A DNA stretch of 64,000 nt from Enterococcus phage AllMyExes. The notes beneath the pieces are model-generated. The model did no database searches. It was given only the letters and a program-made list of their open reading frames with translations, and had not been told where the DNA came from. Numbering within the stretch: the first letter of the stretch is position 1; every line of letters starts with the position of its first letter. The stretch lies in sequence record PV544171.1. One strand, 5' to 3'. Below are positions 54,503-63,409 of this stretch, piece by piece. Position numbers and translations under genes: made by a program.

Positions 54503-54531
54503 GTTGACAAATATCTATAACTTTGTTATAG
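54503..54531 (+). promoter_or_regulatory. sigma-A-type promoter TTGACA-N17-TATAGT
   Basis: After the terminator at 54460-54493 and before the acidic protein gene. Confidence 0.5.
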
Positions 54532-54572
54532 TATAAATATCAAGGATATTGATAATAAATTTTGGAGGTGCC

Positions 54573-56849
54573 ATGATGGCAAATATTTTAGACACATTAA
54601 AGTGGTTAGATAAAGGGGACAAAGTTACTATTGAATTTGATAAAGAGCGGTCGAAGTATGCAAAACTGACTTTGCACGATTCATCAGCTAAGACAAATAT
54701 TGTCCGTAACATTGTTTTTTATGATTTAGACAAAGGAGTGTATGCTTACACTGGTGAATACACCCCTGTATGGGATAACTTATTAGATGATATGCGTAAG
54801 ACACAAGGCGCAGAACCTGAAATTAAGACTACAAAAGTAAATCAGTTAGCTACCTATGAAGATGCCTTAAAGTTTATTGAAACAAATGGTACGTTTTATG
54901 TAATTGGTGAGGAAGTAATTGTTAAGGTTAAAGATGCAAAAGAGCTAGCATTGATGTTAATGTACTTTAGAGATGCTATTGAAGAACTAAGAGGAGAATA
55001 CGACCCTAAAAAACATCATGTAGATATGACAATTGAATTATCAAAAGATGTTTTGAAAAAAATGGCAGTACCTAGACATGAATTAGACTTATCTTTAGGT
55101 GGCTTAATGAGAGCTGTATCACATAATGTTGGAGAAGACCTTTTTGAAACTCTTGGGTTTGACTACATGAAGCAAGCTTGGGAAGTCTTAGTTAATTGCT
55201 TGTCACTAGACACTATCCATGAGGTACCTTTCCGTGTGCTAGACGAATTAGAGAAAGTAACAGATAGCATGTCTACTACAGACCATATTGTTACCTTGTA
55301 TGCCGGTAGAGAACTTAAAAAATTCTATTCAGAGGAAGAGTACTTTGATGTAATCACACACAATTTAGCTGATGTGATTATGGATTGGTCAACTATTTTT
55401 ACTACAGCTGTTCTTAATAATACAGAAGATGATGAACACCTTAAAGAGTTACAGCTTAACTTTGAGAGATTCAAGTTAGATGTAGCAGAGGTTCTATTAG
55501 GTAATGTTGCAAGACATTTGCTATATGCAGGAGTTACCGATAGCTTTAACGAAGTTAACCATTATGTTGTCGGAGCAGGTAACCTGATTAGAACAGAAGG
55601 TTTGGTTAGAATAGAAGAATTAACTGGGACATTAGACGACTCTAAAGACGGAGATAGCTCTGAAACAGATAATAAAGAGTCATTAGATGACATCTTTACA
55701 AATACAGGTGATGATGGTGTTGAAGACTTTACAAAAGAAGTAGACGAGCTTGCCATGTTTGAGAACGAACATGCTGAGGAACTTTTGGAAGTCAATAACA
55801 AATTAAAAGATAATCAAGAGTTATTACGTAAAACTGTGGAGGCGATGGGTATGGCTTCTTACTCTACTATTGATTCATCATTTGAACAAGAGGAAGAAAC
55901 AGATAGCAACCACACAGAGACTTGTGAGGATACCAGAGCTTTCCAAATGTTAAGCTATGCAGTACGTTCAGGAGACAAATTACTTGAACGTGTAGAGAAT
56001 CACCCACAAACTGAAAAAGGGTTGAGAATGGCTAAAGATTCTCTAAAAGAGTTTGACCATACAGTTAAACCAGAATTAGAAGCTTATTTAAAAGCAGAAG
56101 AGTTAGCGGAAGACGTTGATAGACATGCAATTGTAACTACAATTATCCGTATCAAGGACACTATGGAAGCAGATATGGACGGCTGTACCGACCCAGTAGA
56201 GCAAGGTTTATTCTACGCAGGAAGCCTAAATATGTTAGAAGAAATGGAATCATTGTTACGGGCTAGCAATAGAGGTTATGGTTGGGACGTAACAGCTATC
56301 TATCTTATCTTGTCCATTGAACTAGCTTATGGGACTTACGGGTTGTCTGATTTAGACTTTACAATTAAAAATAAAGAGGAAACTCGTAAAGAAGAACAAG
56401 ATGCAATTAATGGCATTGTAAACTTCTTAGCCAATCTTTTAAATACAGTACTAGAAGAAGAATCAGAATCAGAAGAAACAACTGTAGTAGTCGAAGAGGA
56501 AGAAGAGGGTAAGGATGACTTCTCACTATCTACAGAAGACACTGCTAAGCTATTGGCAGACTGGTCAAATGGTCTACCTACGTATGTCGTTACTCGTAAA
56601 TACGGAATTAGTATGGGAGCTTTATACTCTATCTTATATGCAAATGGGGCAGACGTTAAATCTTCTAAAGTAGCAGAACGAGTGGCTCATGTGGAAAATG
56701 ACAAAGATATGTTAAACGCAGTCATTCGAGACTACAAGAAAGGTACTCGTTTAGTAGATATTTATACTAAATACAAATTATATAAAAATGGTTTGTTCTA
56801 TCTTTTAGATAAATATCGAGTTCCACGTAGAGGACATACAAAGAAATAA
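54573..56849 (+). CDS. large, strongly acidic (D/E-rich) early protein with C-terminal HTH-like repeats
   Basis: GGAGGTG RBS before the ATGATG at 54573/54576. It is driven by the promoter at 54503. D/E-rich tracts such as EESESEETTVVVEEEEEG. Confidence 0.4.
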   Translation: MMANILDTLKWLDKGDKVTIEFDKERSKYAKLTLHDSSAKTNIVRNIVFYDLDKGVYAYTGEYTPVWDNLLDDMRKTQGAEPEIKTTKVNQLATYEDALKFIETNGTFYVIGEEVIVKVKDAKELALMLMYFRDAIEELRGEYDPKKHHVDMTIELSKDVLKKMAVPRHELDLSLGGLMRAVSHNVGEDLFETLGFDYMKQAWEVLVNCLSLDTIHEVPFRVLDELEKVTDSMSTTDHIVTLYAGRELKKFYSEEEYFDVITHNLADVIMDWSTIFTTAVLNNTEDDEHLKELQLNFERFKLDVAEVLLGNVARHLLYAGVTDSFNEVNHYVVGAGNLIRTEGLVRIEELTGTLDDSKDGDSSETDNKESLDDIFTNTGDDGVEDFTKEVDELAMFENEHAEELLEVNNKLKDNQELLRKTVEAMGMASYSTIDSSFEQEEETDSNHTETCEDTRAFQMLSYAVRSGDKLLERVENHPQTEKGLRMAKDSLKEFDHTVKPELEAYLKAEELAEDVDRHAIVTTIIRIKDTMEADMDGCTDPVEQGLFYAGSLNMLEEMESLLRASNRGYGWDVTAIYLILSIELAYGTYGLSDLDFTIKNKEETRKEEQDAINGIVNFLANLLNTVLEEESESEETTVVVEEEEEGKDDFSLSTEDTAKLLADWSNGLPTYVVTRKYGISMGALYSILYANGADVKSSKVAERVAHVENDKDMLNAVIRDYKKGTRLVDIYTKYKLYKNGLFYLLDKYRVPRRGHTKK

Positions 56850-56908: not shown

Positions 56909-57115
56909 TTGATTCTTTTTATATTTAGCATTATTACAATGCTATCCATGTTCTTACTATATTTGTTTGGGATGGCTTCCGTAGCTCTACTTCAACTAGG
57001 ACTCCTTATAGGTAGTCAAAATGATATAGCTAAAGGCATGCACTCTTTGCTTTTCACAGGTGTCGCACTTACTGTAGTCACCGAAATAACTAAGCAGTGT
57101 TTACTATTATTTTAA
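56909..57115 (+). CDS. small membrane protein
   Basis: TTG start after AGGGAGGA. Hydrophobic. Confidence 0.35.
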   Translation: MILFIFSIITMLSMFLLYLFGMASVALLQLGLLIGSQNDIAKGMHSLLFTGVALTVVTEITKQCLLLF

Positions 57116-57137
57116 AAAAAAAATTGGAGGATTTAGC

Positions 57138-57644
57138 ATGTTGTTTTTTATTGTTTTAGCAGTATTTATAGGCGGGCTTGCTTTATGGGGAATGTATGAT
57201 AGTTATGGGTACCTAGACTGGACTTCATGGTTATTTAGTATTGTGGTAGGCTCTGCTGTAGCTACTTTTTTCACACTGGCAGTGGTCGGAATTACTTTCG
57301 ATGTTGCACCAAGTCATGGGGTAACGAAAAGCTATGAACTACACCCTATCTATGAGAACAGTAAAGTAGCTGTAGAGGCTAAAAAAGACCAGTTTGAGAT
57401 TAATGTAGATGGCGGTTTGACAGCTATCGATGCAGAAGGCACTACTATCTTATCTACTAAAGGAGAGATTAAACCTAAAATTGTGTTTACAGAGAACTAT
57501 ATAAACACCAACTGGTGGACTCGTTTCCTAGGTATAGCAGATAAGGTAAAAGACACCTCATCAGTTCTTTATTTAGACTCAGATACCTTAGTGTACAATA
57601 AGCCGGAAAAGAACAGTAGCGCACCAGATTTAAAAATTAAATAA
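57138..57644 (+). CDS. membrane-anchored hypothetical protein (two N-terminal TM segments)
   Basis: GGAGG RBS. Hydrophobic N-terminus. Confidence 0.4.
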   Translation: MLFFIVLAVFIGGLALWGMYDSYGYLDWTSWLFSIVVGSAVATFFTLAVVGITFDVAPSHGVTKSYELHPIYENSKVAVEAKKDQFEINVDGGLTAIDAEGTTILSTKGEIKPKIVFTENYINTNWWTRFLGIADKVKDTSSVLYLDSDTLVYNKPEKNSSAPDLKIK

Positions 57645-58153: not shown

Positions 58154-58197
58154 TTTCTCACTAGAATTAATTAGTGAGAAAAAAATTAAATAAAACT

Positions 58198-58256
58198 ATT
58201 GACAAATAACAAAACATGATGTAAACTAAGTTTATAAGATAAAGAAGAGGAGAGAT
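58198..58256 (+). promoter_or_regulatory. early promoter/5'UTR cassette copy 1 (TTGACA-N17-TAAACT, palindrome AAACTAAGTTT, RBS GAGGAGAG)
   Basis: 59 nt identical to copy 2. Confidence 0.6.
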
Positions 58257-58813: not shown

Positions 58814-59602
58814 ATGTTTAGTGTTGTTAAGGCTGACAGCTATGTTAAATCAGACATAGAAATGTATGAATTTAAGAATGTAAAAAGTTTGGCATTGACT
58901 AAGAAAGAGAAAGAACTATGGTCAGGCAAAATTGCTAAATATGCTAATGAGTTTATTGTAGATGCTTATGGAGACTACCATGGTAATAAAATACCTGAAA
59001 TAGATGTTGTAATCAATGGTAAGCTAAGAAGAACCCTAGGTTCTTTTGTCCAATTCACTAACACAAACAAACACTGTATAGAGATAAATGGTAGGTTTGT
59101 TAAAGAAGTTATTCTATTACAAGAAACACCCTTAGCTCAAAGAGCGCTTGATATTTTAATGGATGTAGCCAGACATGAAGCTATCCACTATACACTTTGT
59201 TATTTAAATAGTTTAAGTGGGGGAGACCTACCAACGTTCAACTACCATGACGGTGGGGAAGACTTTGAAAAAGATTTATGTTTGACAGGAACTTCACCTA
59301 GTGGCGCTACGAAAGAAGAGTATATTTATAGTTCTTTTACACTAGGAGCCATCAGATGCCGACACCATAGTACTTGCCCTGAATGTGGGTTGGAAACATA
59401 CATGTATACACGAGGACGGTACTATTGCTATAATGGGTGTGTAGGGGATAACGGTAGAAAAATTATATTTAGACCACAAGGTGATATTGCAATTTATATT
59501 GATGAACCAAAATCTAAAGCTAAACCAAAAGTAGAGGAAGCTCTGAAAGACTATAAAGGAGCGTTAAAGCTACCTTATACAGGTACAGAAGAAATAAAAT
59601 AA
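58814..59602 (+). CDS. SprT-like zinc metalloprotease domain protein with Zn ribbon
   Basis: HEAIH (HExxH), then CPECG...CYNGC (Cys4 ribbon). Confidence 0.4.
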   Translation: MFSVVKADSYVKSDIEMYEFKNVKSLALTKKEKELWSGKIAKYANEFIVDAYGDYHGNKIPEIDVVINGKLRRTLGSFVQFTNTNKHCIEINGRFVKEVILLQETPLAQRALDILMDVARHEAIHYTLCYLNSLSGGDLPTFNYHDGGEDFEKDLCLTGTSPSGATKEEYIYSSFTLGAIRCRHHSTCPECGLETYMYTRGRYYCYNGCVGDNGRKIIFRPQGDIAIYIDEPKSKAKPKVEEALKDYKGALKLPYTGTEEIK

Positions 59603-59618
59603 AAAAATAGTTAAATGT

Positions 59619-59677
59619 ATTGACAAATAACAAAACATGATGTAAACTAAGTTTATAAGATAAAGAAGAGGAGAGAT
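59619..59677 (+). promoter_or_regulatory. early promoter/5'UTR cassette copy 2 (identical to copy 1)
   Basis: Exact 59-nt repeat. Confidence 0.6.
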
Positions 59678-59682
59678 TTATT

Positions 59683-60756
59683 ATGGCATACGTAACAAAT
59701 ATTGATGTAGTAGCAGATGGGTTAGATTTATATAATGGGAACTATGTGGTAGAACGAGGTCAAGTAGTTACTTTTAAACTACATGTAGCGACATGGAACA
59801 ATGAGCCTACACCCGAAAATGCTTATGCGATTATTCGTAATAATGGAATAGATTATAAGAGTAAGGTTGATGAATTTGGCAATGCAGAGGTTACCTTCCC
59901 AGTTAATGGTCGTCCTGACCAAGTAACAACTAGCATCTTTGCATTAACTTCTGGATATGAGGGGGATATGCCTCGTGTAATGTCAGCTATCTTTAGTGAC
60001 GAAACAGAAATTAAACAAACTGTAATGAACGTTACAGCATCTATTAATGGGGAGCCAGTTAGTCGTGAAGGTGTATTTTTAGAACGAGACCAAGTAGTCA
60101 CTGTAGATGTTAAAGCAACATTATCTACAGGTAAGTTCTGGGAAGGCGCACAGGTAGGCGTGTACAATAACAACACGGAATACTTAGGTGACCTAGATGC
60201 AGATGGTTATGGTTCAGTAACTTTCCAAGTAAAAGGAAAACAAGGGATGGACACATCAGCTATCTACGTATTCGTTAAAGACCATGAACGAGAAGCTACA
60301 CTAACAGTTCCTGTGAAGTTCACTAATACTACTGCTACTACAGAAACTTCTACAGAAGAGTCGTCTACTGTTGATACGACTACAGGAACAGAGGAGCCTT
60401 CTACTACGGATACAACAACTGTAGAAAGCTCTACAACGGATTCTACGTCCTCTACAGTAGATTCTACAGAAAGTACAGTAGAAAGCTCTACAGAGCAAAC
60501 AGTGACCAATGAAGACACTTCTACTGATTCAGAGGTAGTTGAAACTACAGAAACTTCCCAAGTAGCAGGCTACACAGAGTCTACTTCTAGTTCTACAGAG
60601 TCTAAAGAAGTTAAGGAAACTCATACTAGCACTACAGAACCTGCTAAAGAGTTGCCATCTACAGGCACAGAGGTAGATTATGGGCTTGTTGGGTTCGGTG
60701 GTGTAACATTAACAGTTGTAGTGGCACTAGTAATTAAAAAATTGTTGAATAAGTAA
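59683..60756 (+). CDS. Ig-like, Ser/Thr-rich protein with a C-terminal LPXTG-type cell-wall sorting signal (LPSTG + TM + KKLLNK) and no N-terminal signal peptide
   Basis: C-terminus ...KELPSTGTEVDYGLVGFGGVTLTVVVALVIKKLLNK. An S/T-rich stalk precedes it. The N-terminus MAYVTNIDVVADG has no hydrophobic leader. Confidence 0.5.
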   Translation: MAYVTNIDVVADGLDLYNGNYVVERGQVVTFKLHVATWNNEPTPENAYAIIRNNGIDYKSKVDEFGNAEVTFPVNGRPDQVTTSIFALTSGYEGDMPRVMSAIFSDETEIKQTVMNVTASINGEPVSREGVFLERDQVVTVDVKATLSTGKFWEGAQVGVYNNNTEYLGDLDADGYGSVTFQVKGKQGMDTSAIYVFVKDHEREATLTVPVKFTNTTATTETSTEESSTVDTTTGTEEPSTTDTTTVESSTTDSTSSTVDSTESTVESSTEQTVTNEDTSTDSEVVETTETSQVAGYTESTSSSTESKEVKETHTSTTEPAKELPSTGTEVDYGLVGFGGVTLTVVVALVIKKLLNK

Positions 60757-60824
60757 GAAACACAATATTGCGACCCTCATTAATTGGGGGTTGCAAATTA
60801 TATTATTTTTTTTAAATAAACCTA

Positions 60825-60881
60825 TTGACATTTAACAAACTATAAGGTAAACTAAGTTCATAAGATAAAGGAGGGAAACAA
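60825..60881 (+). promoter_or_regulatory. early promoter cassette copy 3 (TTGACA-N17-TAAACT, AAACTAAGTTC, diverged)
   Basis: Same architecture, about 75% identical. Confidence 0.5.
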
Positions 60882-61490: not shown

Positions 61491-61775
61491 ATGGATAAGG
61501 CTGAAAAGGTAGATAACATTGTAAGACAGGTCGCAGGGGCTATTATTAAAACAACTGCAAAAGCAGCTTTTATTGTTTTTGTTTTAACCTTTGCAGGTGT
61601 TTTAGTAAGTTATTGTAGTTATTCATTTTTAACAAATGTAGGCTGGTTTACCCTACCTATGGTGGTATCAGTAGACTTGCTGTATGTTGCAATACTGTTA
61701 GGTGGACTAGCTTTTATATTTGTAGAGGTATACAAGGTAGTTTTAGAAGTGAAAAAGATAGTTAAACGAGGTTAG
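61491..61775 (+). CDS. small membrane protein
   Basis: Two hydrophobic helices. Confidence 0.35.
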   Translation: MDKAEKVDNIVRQVAGAIIKTTAKAAFIVFVLTFAGVLVSYCSYSFLTNVGWFTLPMVVSVDLLYVAILLGGLAFIFVEVYKVVLEVKKIVKRG

Positions 61776-61796
61776 AAAATATAGGAGGAACTTATT

Positions 61797-62150
61797 ATGA
61801 ATAAAAAAGTAGAGGAAATGACAATGGAAGAAAAGGATAAAGCGCTAATTGCAATGGGACTTATTGATGTAACACAAGAATTGGACTGGTTAGTGTTAGC
61901 TACTTGTGAAGACTGTGGGGAAGAGTATGAAGAAGAAGACTGTGCAGAGTGTGAGCATTGTGGTGGAGAAGACTTTATGATTGAAACAGGACTAGAGGGT
62001 ACTCGTTGTGGACGTTGTGATAGCTACTTTGAGATGTGGGATGACTACTTTGAGTTTGAGAACGAAGGTAACCCATACAAAGATAAGCGTATCTGTGAAC
62101 ATTGTCATGATGAACTAGTATCTATGGGAATGGAAGAAAAGAAATTTTAA
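61797..62150 (+). CDS. zinc-ribbon protein (four CxxC pairs), acidic
   Basis: CEDCGEEYEEEDCAEC, CGRCDSY, CEHCHDE. Confidence 0.4.
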   Translation: MNKKVEEMTMEEKDKALIAMGLIDVTQELDWLVLATCEDCGEEYEEEDCAECEHCGGEDFMIETGLEGTRCGRCDSYFEMWDDYFEFENEGNPYKDKRICEHCHDELVSMGMEEKKF

Positions 62151-62176
62151 AATATTACTAAGAAGGAGACTTAATC

Positions 62177-62554
62177 ATGAACGAATTAGAGGAACTTAAG
62201 AATACGCTGACTAGGCAAAAGCTTTCAATGTTGGAAAGTTACGAAATGAGAGAAGCATCATTTTGGATAATGTTTAATGGGACAATGCGTACTATCATGT
62301 CAGTAGCTGTAGTAGCCTTTGTGAGCTACGCTAAGCATGTAAGACCAGATAATGTAGCCACATGGTTTCTAGCTCTGATTTGGGTTATTTTCCTAGCAGA
62401 AGGTGCTAAAGGTGCTTATGATGCTATTGCATTCGGTATTCACCGCAAAAAATTTGCTAAACATATTAAAAATATGCGTGGAATAATCACAATCACACAA
62501 TTACTTATTAAAGAAGACGAAGAGAAATTAAACGAGGGTAAACTAGATGAGTAA
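62177..62554 (+). CDS. membrane protein
   Basis: Hydrophobic segments. Confidence 0.35.
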   Translation: MNELEELKNTLTRQKLSMLESYEMREASFWIMFNGTMRTIMSVAVVAFVSYAKHVRPDNVATWFLALIWVIFLAEGAKGAYDAIAFGIHRKKFAKHIKNMRGIITITQLLIKEDEEKLNEGKLDE

Positions 62555-62777
62555 AGATGAGAAATTAGTTGAGTGGTTTGTAGTTGCTTTAATGGTGATT
62601 ATGTGGTTGCTTATCACGTTTAGTATCCTGTACACAATAGTTTCCTTACCTTTCATGGTACATGAAGGGGACTGGCTAGGGATTGTACGAAACGTACTAC
62701 TGGACATTATAGTATTGGTAATTGGGGTTGTCGCTACATGGTTGCAATTAAGATTTAAAAAAGGAATGGAGGAATAA
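62547..62777 (+). CDS. small membrane protein
   Basis: Two TM segments. Overlaps the upstream stop. Confidence 0.35.
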   Translation: MSKDEKLVEWFVVALMVIMWLLITFSILYTIVSLPFMVHEGDWLGIVRNVLLDIIVLVIGVVATWLQLRFKKGMEE

Positions 62778-62780
62778 TTA

Positions 62781-63155
62781 ATGGGATATTTAGAGAGTGC
62801 AATTGAAGAAATTGAACGAGTACTACTAGGAAATAAAAGTCGTGACACCGAAGAAGTTTATTTAAACAATGCAATTCGGTATATCAAAAAAGAGTTAAAG
62901 AAAAAAGAGGTAGAGCCAACGTGGTTAAATGAACCACAGACATTGTTCCTTAATTGGTTTAACGAATTATACGCAGTAGGTGGTTTAACTCATGTAACAG
63001 AGGCAGTAGGTTTTTTAGAATCCACAGGAGGTAGAATTAAGTATCCAGAAGCATATTCTGCTTTCAGTAATTTAAGTGAGAATGAATTGCTTGAGGTTTA
63101 CAGTAAATTTTATACAGGGTTATTCTTAAAAGCACAAGGAGGTGAATTAGAATGA
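62781..63155 (+). CDS. hypothetical protein
   Basis: ORF only. Confidence 0.3.
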   Translation: MGYLESAIEEIERVLLGNKSRDTEEVYLNNAIRYIKKELKKKEVEPTWLNEPQTLFLNWFNELYAVGGLTHVTEAVGFLESTGGRIKYPEAYSAFSNLSENELLEVYSKFYTGLFLKAQGGELE

Positions 63156-63409
63156 ACTTTCATGGTAAAGTATTTCATGATAAAGTATTTGACATTCTTT
63201 CTCGTGATTACCCTGATTGGCAGAGGTATCAGACAGAGAAACGACCACATCCCAATGAGCTTAGAAAAGACTTTGCCATTGATAGTACAGATAGTAGATA
63301 TGAAGAGTATGTTATGGGAGAGTTTAATGTAGAAACGGCTAGCGGAGATGTTAAAGTATACGCAGTAGGAATTAGAAGAGTAGTTCATAAAAGAGCTGAG
63401 GAGGAGTAA
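63152..63409 (+). CDS. hypothetical protein
   Basis: ORF only. Confidence 0.3.
   Translation: MNFHGKVFHDKVFDILSRDYPDWQRYQTEKRPHPNELRKDFAIDSTDSRYEEYVMGEFNVETASGDVKVYAVGIRRVVHKRAEEE

Follow-up and report, generated by a model that had tools for sequence, protein, structure and literature searches.

In the Enterococcus phage AllMyExes a gene for a protein of 357 amino acids (aa), at positions 59683-60756 on the plus strand, carries a C-terminal LPXTG-type sorting signal but no N-terminal leader. The whole stretch of DNA that was analysed, 64,000 nucleotides (nt) of sequence record PV544171.1, is referred to as the window. Sortase-dependent display is held to need two signals, an N-terminal Sec leader and the C-terminal LPXTG. 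In this gene selection has long kept the LPXTG signal without the leader, in a family whose other members have both. Measured against the literature we searched, three points appear to be new: that the leaderless state is real, ancient and selected, that the protein descends from a family with signal peptides, and that this family is found in virulent phages.

The genome is that of a Kochikohdavirus (Herelleviridae, Brockvirinae; a relative of phiEF24C, ECP3 and EFLK1) infecting Enterococcus faecalis. The first-pass annotation of the window had proposed a phage gene for a protein with an LPXTG signal, and we confirmed the open reading frame (ORF) in Kochikohdavirus. The product matched PHROG 26080, to which no function is assigned, over its full length (E 3e-238, residues 1-357 of 357). 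Copies with at least 95% protein identity were found in 37 GenBank phage records, and the gene was intact in every one of the 37. The label 'LPXTG-motif cell wall anchor domain protein' is already in use in the records of EFLK1, phage 156, vB_EfaH_149 and EF1TV, while the remaining records mostly read 'hypothetical'. Our literature search found no paper discussing the gene and none tying LPXTG to EFLK1, EF24C or Herelleviridae phages; the paper on immunoglobulin-like (Ig-like) domains in vB_EfaM_A2 concerns structural Big_2 proteins of another genus. The G+C content of 59683-60756 is 0.397, slightly above the 0.358 of the window and the 0.347-0.352 of the neighbours, which fits either a foreign origin or the codon make-up of the Thr/Ser/Glu stalk. 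The gene and the parts of its product are listed below.

59683..60756, plus strand: coding sequence of the leaderless LPXTG protein, 357 aa, ATG start; PHROG 26080, under purifying selection
59683..60006, plus strand: Ig-like beta-sandwich domain 1, residues 1-108 (AlphaFold2 model, phmmer, hhalign)
60007..60321, plus strand: Ig-like beta-sandwich domain 2, residues 109-213, an internal duplicate of domain 1
60322..60651, plus strand: acidic Ser/Thr-rich stalk, predicted disordered, residues 214-323; sequence divergent, length kept
60652..60666, plus strand: LPSTG pentapeptide, residues 324-328; L, P, T and G invariant in the lineages
60685..60735, plus strand: hydrophobic segment LVGFGGVTLTVVVALVI, residues 335-351, the sole transmembrane-grade segment of the protein
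60736..60756, plus strand: basic tail KKLLNK, residues 352-357, and stop codon; KK..NK invariant

The C-terminus reads ...KE-LPSTG-TEVDYG-LVGFGGVTLTVVVALVI-KKLLNK. The LPSTG stands 29 residues from the C-terminal end, within the approx. 35 residues expected of sortase substrates. Residues 333-351 form the only 19-residue window with a Kyte-Doolittle (KD) hydropathy above 1.6 (value 2.18), and the hydrophobic segment, whose length is 17-19 residues according to the cut chosen, extends to 6 residues from the stop codon. On its two sides the tail KKLLNK has a charge of +3 and the N-side flank one of -3. When the C-terminal 41 aa were scored in isolation they reached 18.4 bits on TIGR01167 and 24.9 bits on PF00746, for which the curated cut-offs are 15.9 and 20 bits. 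The full-length protein scored 19.6 bits on PF00746, marginally under the cut-off, and was not reported for TIGR01167 at E<=0.1; the low-complexity stalk depresses the full-length PF00746 score. Sorting signals of the relatives reached 19.1-24.3 bits on TIGR01167, and all three lineages tested passed both cut-offs.

AlphaFold2 predicted two beta-sandwiches (residues 1-106 and 111-214) of seven to nine strands each, with a block-wise predicted local distance difference test (pLDDT) score of 56-91, mostly approx. 70-90. In this model residues 3-11 are the first strand (strand A) of domain 1, and disorder prevails throughout after residue 217. The two domains are 26% identical (E 3e-8), indicating an internal duplication. 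Foldseek against PDB and BFVD matched only generic tandem Ig and Big-1 proteins (E 1e-5 to 1e-8). No Ig-like family of Pfam reached its gathering threshold; domain 1 was without any match and domain 2 had sub-threshold ones to bMG3 (21.3 bits, cut-off 34.9), Big_6 (17.6 bits, cut-off 27.6) and CBM30. The stalk, counted from the end of the 'KFT' motif of domain 2 to LPSTG, is 109 aa long, with 54% Ser+Thr, 23% Asp+Glu and a net charge of -21. Three elements that the first-pass annotation had read from the letters were thus borne out: the sortase signal made of LPSTG, hydrophobic segment and KKLLNK (the isolated C-terminus passes TIGR01167 and PF00746), a Ser/Thr-rich stalk of about 100 residues, and Ig-like beta domains (two in tandem by AlphaFold2 and Foldseek). 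The absence of cysteine was considered as a sign of export and found to be uninformative; in a proteome poor in Cys its P is 0.12-0.23.

In the N-terminus, MAYVTNIDVVADGLDLYNGNYVVER..., no Lys or Arg comes before residue 25, and three of the first 20 residues are acidic. Its maximum KD hydropathy over 12 residues is 0.84, as compared with 1.9-2.2 in the signal peptides of the homologues described below. By charge and hydropathy no Sec-type signal peptide was found in the 357-aa protein, there being neither a basic n-region nor a hydrophobic h-region. The lack of a Sec leader noted in the first-pass annotation agrees with hydropathy, charge and the position of strand A at residues 3-11. In the 80-nt spacer to the preceding gene stop codons close all three upstream frames, so that no in-frame extension is possible. 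The same start codon is used in four divergent lineages, behind a conserved GGAGAGATTTATT, with N-termini of the form M-A/T-Y/H-V. We rejected a signal peptide hidden by an upstream start or a sequencing error, as all frames are stopped and the start is the same in the 37 phage records. An upstream in-frame signal peptide, which would have spoken against the first-pass annotation by its own account, is excluded here and in the four divergent lineages. Other export routes were rejected as well: the N-terminus has no WXG/LXG helices as for type VII secretion and no RR motif as for twin-arginine translocation (Tat), and a Ser-rich repeat glycoprotein of the accessory Sec system (SecA2/Y2) would have a specialised leader, which is absent, and SxSx dipeptide repeats, which the T/S/E-rich stalk does not have.

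Selection was analysed over four lineages, of which three divergent metagenomic ones (L003, L004 and L006) share the gene order. Identity over the N-terminal query was 75% for L003 and 90% for L004; L006 was 96% identical over the Ig domains and approx. 81% over the full length, the drop coming from a divergent stalk and anchor. Synonymous divergence (dS) between the lineages is near saturation, at approx. 0.6-1.0. Omega differed by part, being 0.02-0.25 in the Ig domains, 0.4-0.6 in the stalk and approx. 0.3 in the sorting signal. In the latter the residues L, P, T and G never change across the lineages, while x can be S or A and the neighbouring residues vary; given the local rate of invariant columns, the chance probability of an invariant LPxTG is approx. 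0.005-0.045. The length of the stalk stays at 108-111 aa across the lineages, through several mutually cancelling indels. Because the four divergent lineages start at the same position behind GGAGAGATTTATT, the leaderless state is old and ancestral to all lineages sampled. Purifying selection at near-saturated dS and the conserved start argue that it has been kept as a functional gene in this form.

Signal-peptide-bearing homologues and origin

When 1.84 billion representative proteins were scanned exhaustively with HMMER, the query of residues 1-215 gave, beyond the family itself, only P0009, P0011 and P0010, the first two with phmmer E-values of 2.7e-5 and 9e-4. P0010 is an adhesin-like protein of Big_3_5 repeats. 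Further search added P0012 and P0013. A host origin of the Ig domain was considered and rejected: three weak matches were found among 1.84 billion proteins, and none is an Enterococcus chromosomal protein.

P0009, P0011, P0012 and P0013 have one common layout, with a Sec signal peptide, a single Ig-like domain, an acidic stalk and an LPKTG/LPETG anchor. Their signal peptides carry 2-4 Lys/Arg and a hydrophobic core with a 12-residue KD value of 1.9-2.2, followed by VYA, VHA or VKA; the stalks are 90-141 aa long and the anchors score 23-35 bits on TIGR01167. Alignment of domain 1 with the homologues by hhalign gave a probability of 97.9% (E 4e-13), and P0009 matches PHROG 26080 with E 3.5e-9. 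In this register residue 2 of the window protein (AYVTNIDV) falls on residue 46 of P0009 (LYVGNIDV), and the first 45 residues of the homologues, comprising signal peptide and short linker, have no counterpart in the Kochikohdavirus protein.

The homologues thus share with the Kochikohdavirus protein an Ig-like domain, an acidic stalk and an LPxTG anchor in the same order, and like it they are encoded by phage accessory genes in non-structural regions. They differ in having a signal peptide with a linker of approx. 12 residues, one Ig domain and Arg-containing tails, whereas the Kochikohdavirus protein begins at the mature domain and has two Ig domains. Since the homologues carry signal peptides and the mature domains align from residue 2, the alignments show that the Kochikohdavirus protein is a derived form without a leader within a small family of predicted sortase substrates carried by phages. 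As seen in the same comparison, the Ig domain has been duplicated, approx. 45 N-terminal residues are missing, and a cassette of promoter and ribosome-binding site abuts the first strand of the predicted mature domain. We infer that the 5' end was probably lost by recombination between promoter cassettes, because an exact 60-nt promoter/leader repeat abuts the start codon.

Profile NF053819 of NCBIfam (EF2685/EF0750 family sortase-dependent surface protein, E. faecalis) gave matches below threshold (13-35 bits against 47) that cover the C-terminal halves of P0009 and P0011 and residues 273-353 of the window protein. There are hints that the anchor module may have been borrowed from host surface-protein genes.

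The contigs that encode P0009, P0012 and P0013 are Enterococcus-siphophage-like; the one that encodes P0011 is Lactococcus-skunavirus-like. The genes of P0009 and P0013 adjoin glutaredoxin and are divergent from an amidase-holin-XhlA lysis cassette; the lysis and tail modules of these contigs (one of 45.5 kb) resemble those of IME_EF3-type E. faecalis siphophages. The gene of P0011 sits among small non-structural genes, and the skunavirus-like LPXTG gene adjoins a Mom-like gene. The canonical genes, each with a signal peptide and an Ig-like domain, are located on virulent-phage-like contigs as follows.

L008, 114-1091: canonical LPXTG gene
L010, 2051-2917: canonical LPXTG gene
L011, 4788-5624: canonical LPXTG gene

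In named Efquatrovirus-type relatives in GenBank the LPXTG gene was not found at the corresponding position. Nothing was returned by a search with the A2 profile for more family members, by scans of IMG/VR with A2, A3 and the window protein, or by a scan of GTDB genomes with P0009. The JGI metagenomes held two near-identical copies only and no further lineage. The canonical LPXTG proteins of these virulent-phage-like contigs apparently form an accessory gene family that has not been described so far. What comes into view is a small, unstudied family of LPXTG-anchored Ig-like proteins in virulent phages of Enterococcus-like and Lactococcus-like hosts, whose members are candidates for receptor masking or exclusion; this is relevant to phage-therapy cocktails, in which phiEF24C-like phages are widely used.

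Transcription unit and gene neighbourhood

The gene is bracketed by its own expression signals.

59618..59677, plus strand: promoter and 5' untranslated region (5'-UTR) cassette, a 60-nt exact copy of 58197-58256
59620-59625, plus strand: -35 element TTGACA, followed by a 17-nt spacer
59643-59648, plus strand: -10 element TAAACT, from which the leader runs on to the ribosome-binding site
59666..59675, plus strand: ribosome-binding site AAGAGGAGAG, 7 nt 5' of the ATG
60768..60815, plus strand: intrinsic terminator made up of a 12-bp GC-rich hairpin (60768-60796) and a T-run behind it, with the stem kept in relatives

The cassette has the layout TATTGACA-17-TAAACTAAGTT...AAGAGGAGAG and stands at 58197-58256, 59618-59677 and 60825-60858. 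The first copy precedes a gene for a helix-turn-helix (HTH) regulator and is identical to the second over 60 nt; the third copy is similar. That it recurs before successive gene blocks suggests that expression cassettes were duplicated or underwent gene conversion. L003, L006 and L013, all relatives, keep the layout TTGACA-17-TAAACT/TAAGAT, and GGAGAGATTTATT-ATG is conserved in every lineage. The terminator stem is maintained in divergent relatives via compensatory changes. To judge from these signals, the LPXTG gene is a self-contained transcription unit with a predicted sigma-A-type promoter and a terminator of its own.

In SPO1-like phages the early promoters are of the host-sigma-A type. 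By analogy with these, the sigma-A-type promoter makes early expression of the LPXTG gene plausible. The first-pass annotation had spoken of a repeated early promoter; the repetition holds, in the form of the 60-nt exact repeat and the third similar copy, and the promoter is sigma-A-like, while the word 'early' is read from the promoter type. The part in host takeover or superinfection exclusion that the same annotation derived from this promoter is conjecture. Our literature search found no transcriptome of Kochikohdavirus.

The lineages share a gene order of HTH gene, 95-aa gene, SprT-like gene, LPXTG gene and two 100-aa genes. The SprT-like gene directly upstream (58814-59602, plus strand) encodes 262 aa (PHROG 9897) with a HEAIH zinc-metalloprotease motif and a Cys-rich zinc-ribbon-like region; its SprT-like Pfam match is weak (14.4 bits, below threshold). 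The C-terminus of the product, ...LKLPYTGTEEIK, contains the window's second LPxTG and has no hydrophobic tail. We considered this LPYTG as part of a two-gene sortase theme and rejected it: it is probably due to chance, because L006 has LPFLG instead and no hydrophobic tail follows.

Small predicted membrane proteins cluster at 56909-57644 and 61491-63332 on the plus strand, in PHROGs without annotation. They comprise proteins of 68 aa, 168 aa (two N-terminal transmembrane segments), 94 aa (two transmembrane segments), 125 aa, 76 aa (two transmembrane segments) and 56 aa. That they are linked to the LPXTG protein, for example by aiding its export, would be pure speculation. Just 5' of the small-gene block lies a 766-aa ORF with a TTG start and very acidic stretches (54549-56849, plus strand), whose promoter at 54504 is near consensus (TTGACA-17-TATAGT with a TG extension).

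Location and role of the protein

The first-pass annotation had listed non-canonical export, release at lysis, anchoring on the cytoplasmic face and a decoy for the host sortase without choosing among them. We could narrow this list, and what follows weighs the candidates without settling on one. Our tentative preference is for post-translational tail-anchoring, with the Ig domains on the cytoplasmic face of the membrane. The host sigma-A polymerase would transcribe the gene early. At termination of translation the hydrophobic segment would still be inside the ribosome and would leave it afterwards. Because this segment lies only 6 residues from the stop, targeting of the finished protein to the membrane would be post-translational, as for a bacterial tail-anchored protein. 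The two beta-sandwiches would be free to fold first, and the 330-residue N-terminal part would stay in the cytoplasm, with the Ig domains held on a flexible tether of approx. 109 aa and, during infection, the LPSTG inaccessible to sortase. Its action would then take place at the membrane's inner face, or not until holin-endolysin lysis exposes the protein on membrane debris. Speculatively, the ligand of the Ig domains would belong to the envelope or to a phage, and binding it might, for example, exclude competitors or spare progeny from debris.

An N-in orientation is favoured by the lack of a signal peptide and of any room for one, residues 3-11 being already the first strand. The protein also has the operational features of a tail anchor, lacking an N-terminal signal and having its only transmembrane segment within approx. 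30 residues of the C-terminus. Leaderless proteins targeted via a C-terminal transmembrane domain are known in Gram-positives and in E. coli (PMC3087755; PMC6794478), and sortase substrates require an N-terminal signal for Sec export (PMC9863714).

Four observations weigh against a cytoplasmic location. The LPxTG is invariant amid varying neighbours, which is hard to explain if sortase never meets the motif. The flanking charges (-3 / +3) predict N-out by the positive-inside rule, so that the orientation cues conflict, the charges pointing out and the missing export signal pointing in. The stalk keeps to 108-111 aa, as a spacer of fixed span would, for example one that crosses the wall. Finally, the Big/E-set Ig-like fold class is typically extracellular or virion-borne.

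The same observations support a second explanation, which we regard as rather unlikely and still a serious contender: that the protein is a true sortase substrate exported without a signal peptide, with SrtA cleaving LPST/G and linking it to peptidoglycan. The route, on that premise and no more probable than it, might be N-tail translocation assisted by YidC or Sec and driven by the very acidic stalk, a phage membrane protein or phage-induced membrane changes. The displayed Ig domains might mask receptors, exclude phages or mediate adhesion, presumably as in the homologues, a role to which we give the same limited credence. In favour stand the invariant LPxTG with its variable x at saturated dS, the sorting signals of all three lineages tested on TIGR01167 and PF00746, the charge asymmetry across the transmembrane segment with the tail inside, the conserved stalk length and the extracellular type of fold. 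The homologues are canonical exported LPXTG proteins, and several small membrane proteins are encoded nearby. A weak precedent is the leaderless Streptomyces protein SCO2900, which has a C-terminal transmembrane segment and faces outward according to preliminary data (PMC3087755).

What speaks against export is the order of events, since the hydrophobic segment emerges post-translation and the Ig domains can fold beforehand. Sec does not transport folded domains, and Tat requires an N-terminal RR signal. Folded Ig domains are thus unsuited to Sec, and the RR signal is absent. We know of no bacterial pathway that moves an N-terminal region of 330 residues, capable of folding, with nothing but a C-terminal segment to lead it. 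That the C-terminal sorting signal alone, possibly aided by the stalk, YidC/Sec or a neighbouring phage membrane protein, drives N-out export and sortase anchoring is accordingly a claim we hold to be doubtful, somewhat more so than export in general. The decoy proposed in the first-pass annotation faces the same obstacle as anchoring, the active site of sortase being outside the membrane.

The two locations would have different consequences. If the protein reaches the wall, this would bring to light a previously unknown Gram-positive export route as well as a compact tag of biotechnological interest, and a lytic phage would be remodelling the surface of a cell that it is about to kill. If it stays inside, a surface-display module has been turned into a tail-anchored intracellular or post-lysis factor, and the 'LPXTG cell wall anchor' labels in phage genomes may mislead on location.

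Interference from inside the cell is improbable in our view. Here the membrane-inserted sorting signal would engage or clog SecYEG/YidC-sortase foci, the Ig domains and the stalk adding bulk or aiding targeting, and would disturb host surface-protein display or envelope assembly as part of host takeover, an effect just as improbable. The conserved C-terminal signal, the early-type promoter and the small membrane-protein neighbours would suit such a role. The tightest constraint is however on the Ig domains (omega 0.02-0.25) and not on the anchor (approx. 0.3), and as the active site of sortase is extracellular, a cytoplasm-facing LPXTG cannot titrate it. To our knowledge there is no precedent for interference by a leaderless sorting signal.

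It is very unlikely that the gene is an evolutionary relic, a surface-protein gene fragment that was captured, is missing the 5' end and is expressed but useless. A recombination accident would indeed give a truncation that coincides with a repeated promoter cassette, and the gene is confined to one genus. Strong purifying selection over four lineages at dS of approx. 0.6-1.0 largely refutes a relic, and the gene is intact in 37/37 records, its promoter, ribosome-binding site and terminator are conserved, and it contains an internal duplication of the Ig domain. A virion or decoration protein can practically be dismissed, for although virions often carry Ig-like domains and phage Big-1 structural proteins are among the Foldseek matches, the gene is surrounded by small sigma-A-promoter genes distant from the structural genes, and its product has a membrane-grade C-terminal segment, a sortase motif and no similarity to known structural PHROGs.

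Comparison with known systems

With canonical sortase A substrates the window protein shares the tripartite sorting signal at the C-terminus, the Ser/Thr/acidic stalk and the Ig-like passenger domains. It differs from them in the N-terminal Sec signal peptide, absent in all lineages, in being encoded by a virulent phage, and in that its anchoring is a prediction. On sequence grounds it thus has every C-terminal feature of a sortase substrate and lacks the N-terminal one, and we do not file it as a canonical member.

Bacterial tail-anchored proteins (Craney et al. 2011, PMC3087755; Peschke et al. 2019, PMC6794478) are likewise leaderless and carry one C-terminal hydrophobic segment. The window protein is unlike them in its sortase signal tail, its flanking charges, which predict N-out, and its extracellular-type Ig passenger, and there is no sequence relationship.

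SasX of Staphylococcus aureus is a prophage-borne LPXTG surface protein with a signal peptide that serves the lysogen. Like the window protein it is a sortase-type surface protein encoded on a phage genome, but SasX belongs to a temperate element and has a signal peptide, whereas the window gene is leaderless and part of a strictly lytic myovirus.

Phage exclusion proteins anchored in the envelope include Ltp of Streptococcus phage TP-J34 and the lactococcal Sie2009. Another case is Llp of phage T5, a lipoprotein cited in PMC9863714 as blocking FhuA. PHROG and Pfam searches gave no similarity of the window protein to any annotated exclusion protein, and Llp, Ltp and Sie2009 differ from the LPXTG family in being lipoproteins or having N-terminal anchors with export signals, with no shared sequence or fold. 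They are alike in being phage-encoded, produced before lysis and tethered to the host envelope, as the LPXTG family is predicted to be, and are the most plausible functional analogy. Candidate roles of the family, all conjectural, are the masking of receptors, exclusion, keeping progeny safe from debris, and adhesion.

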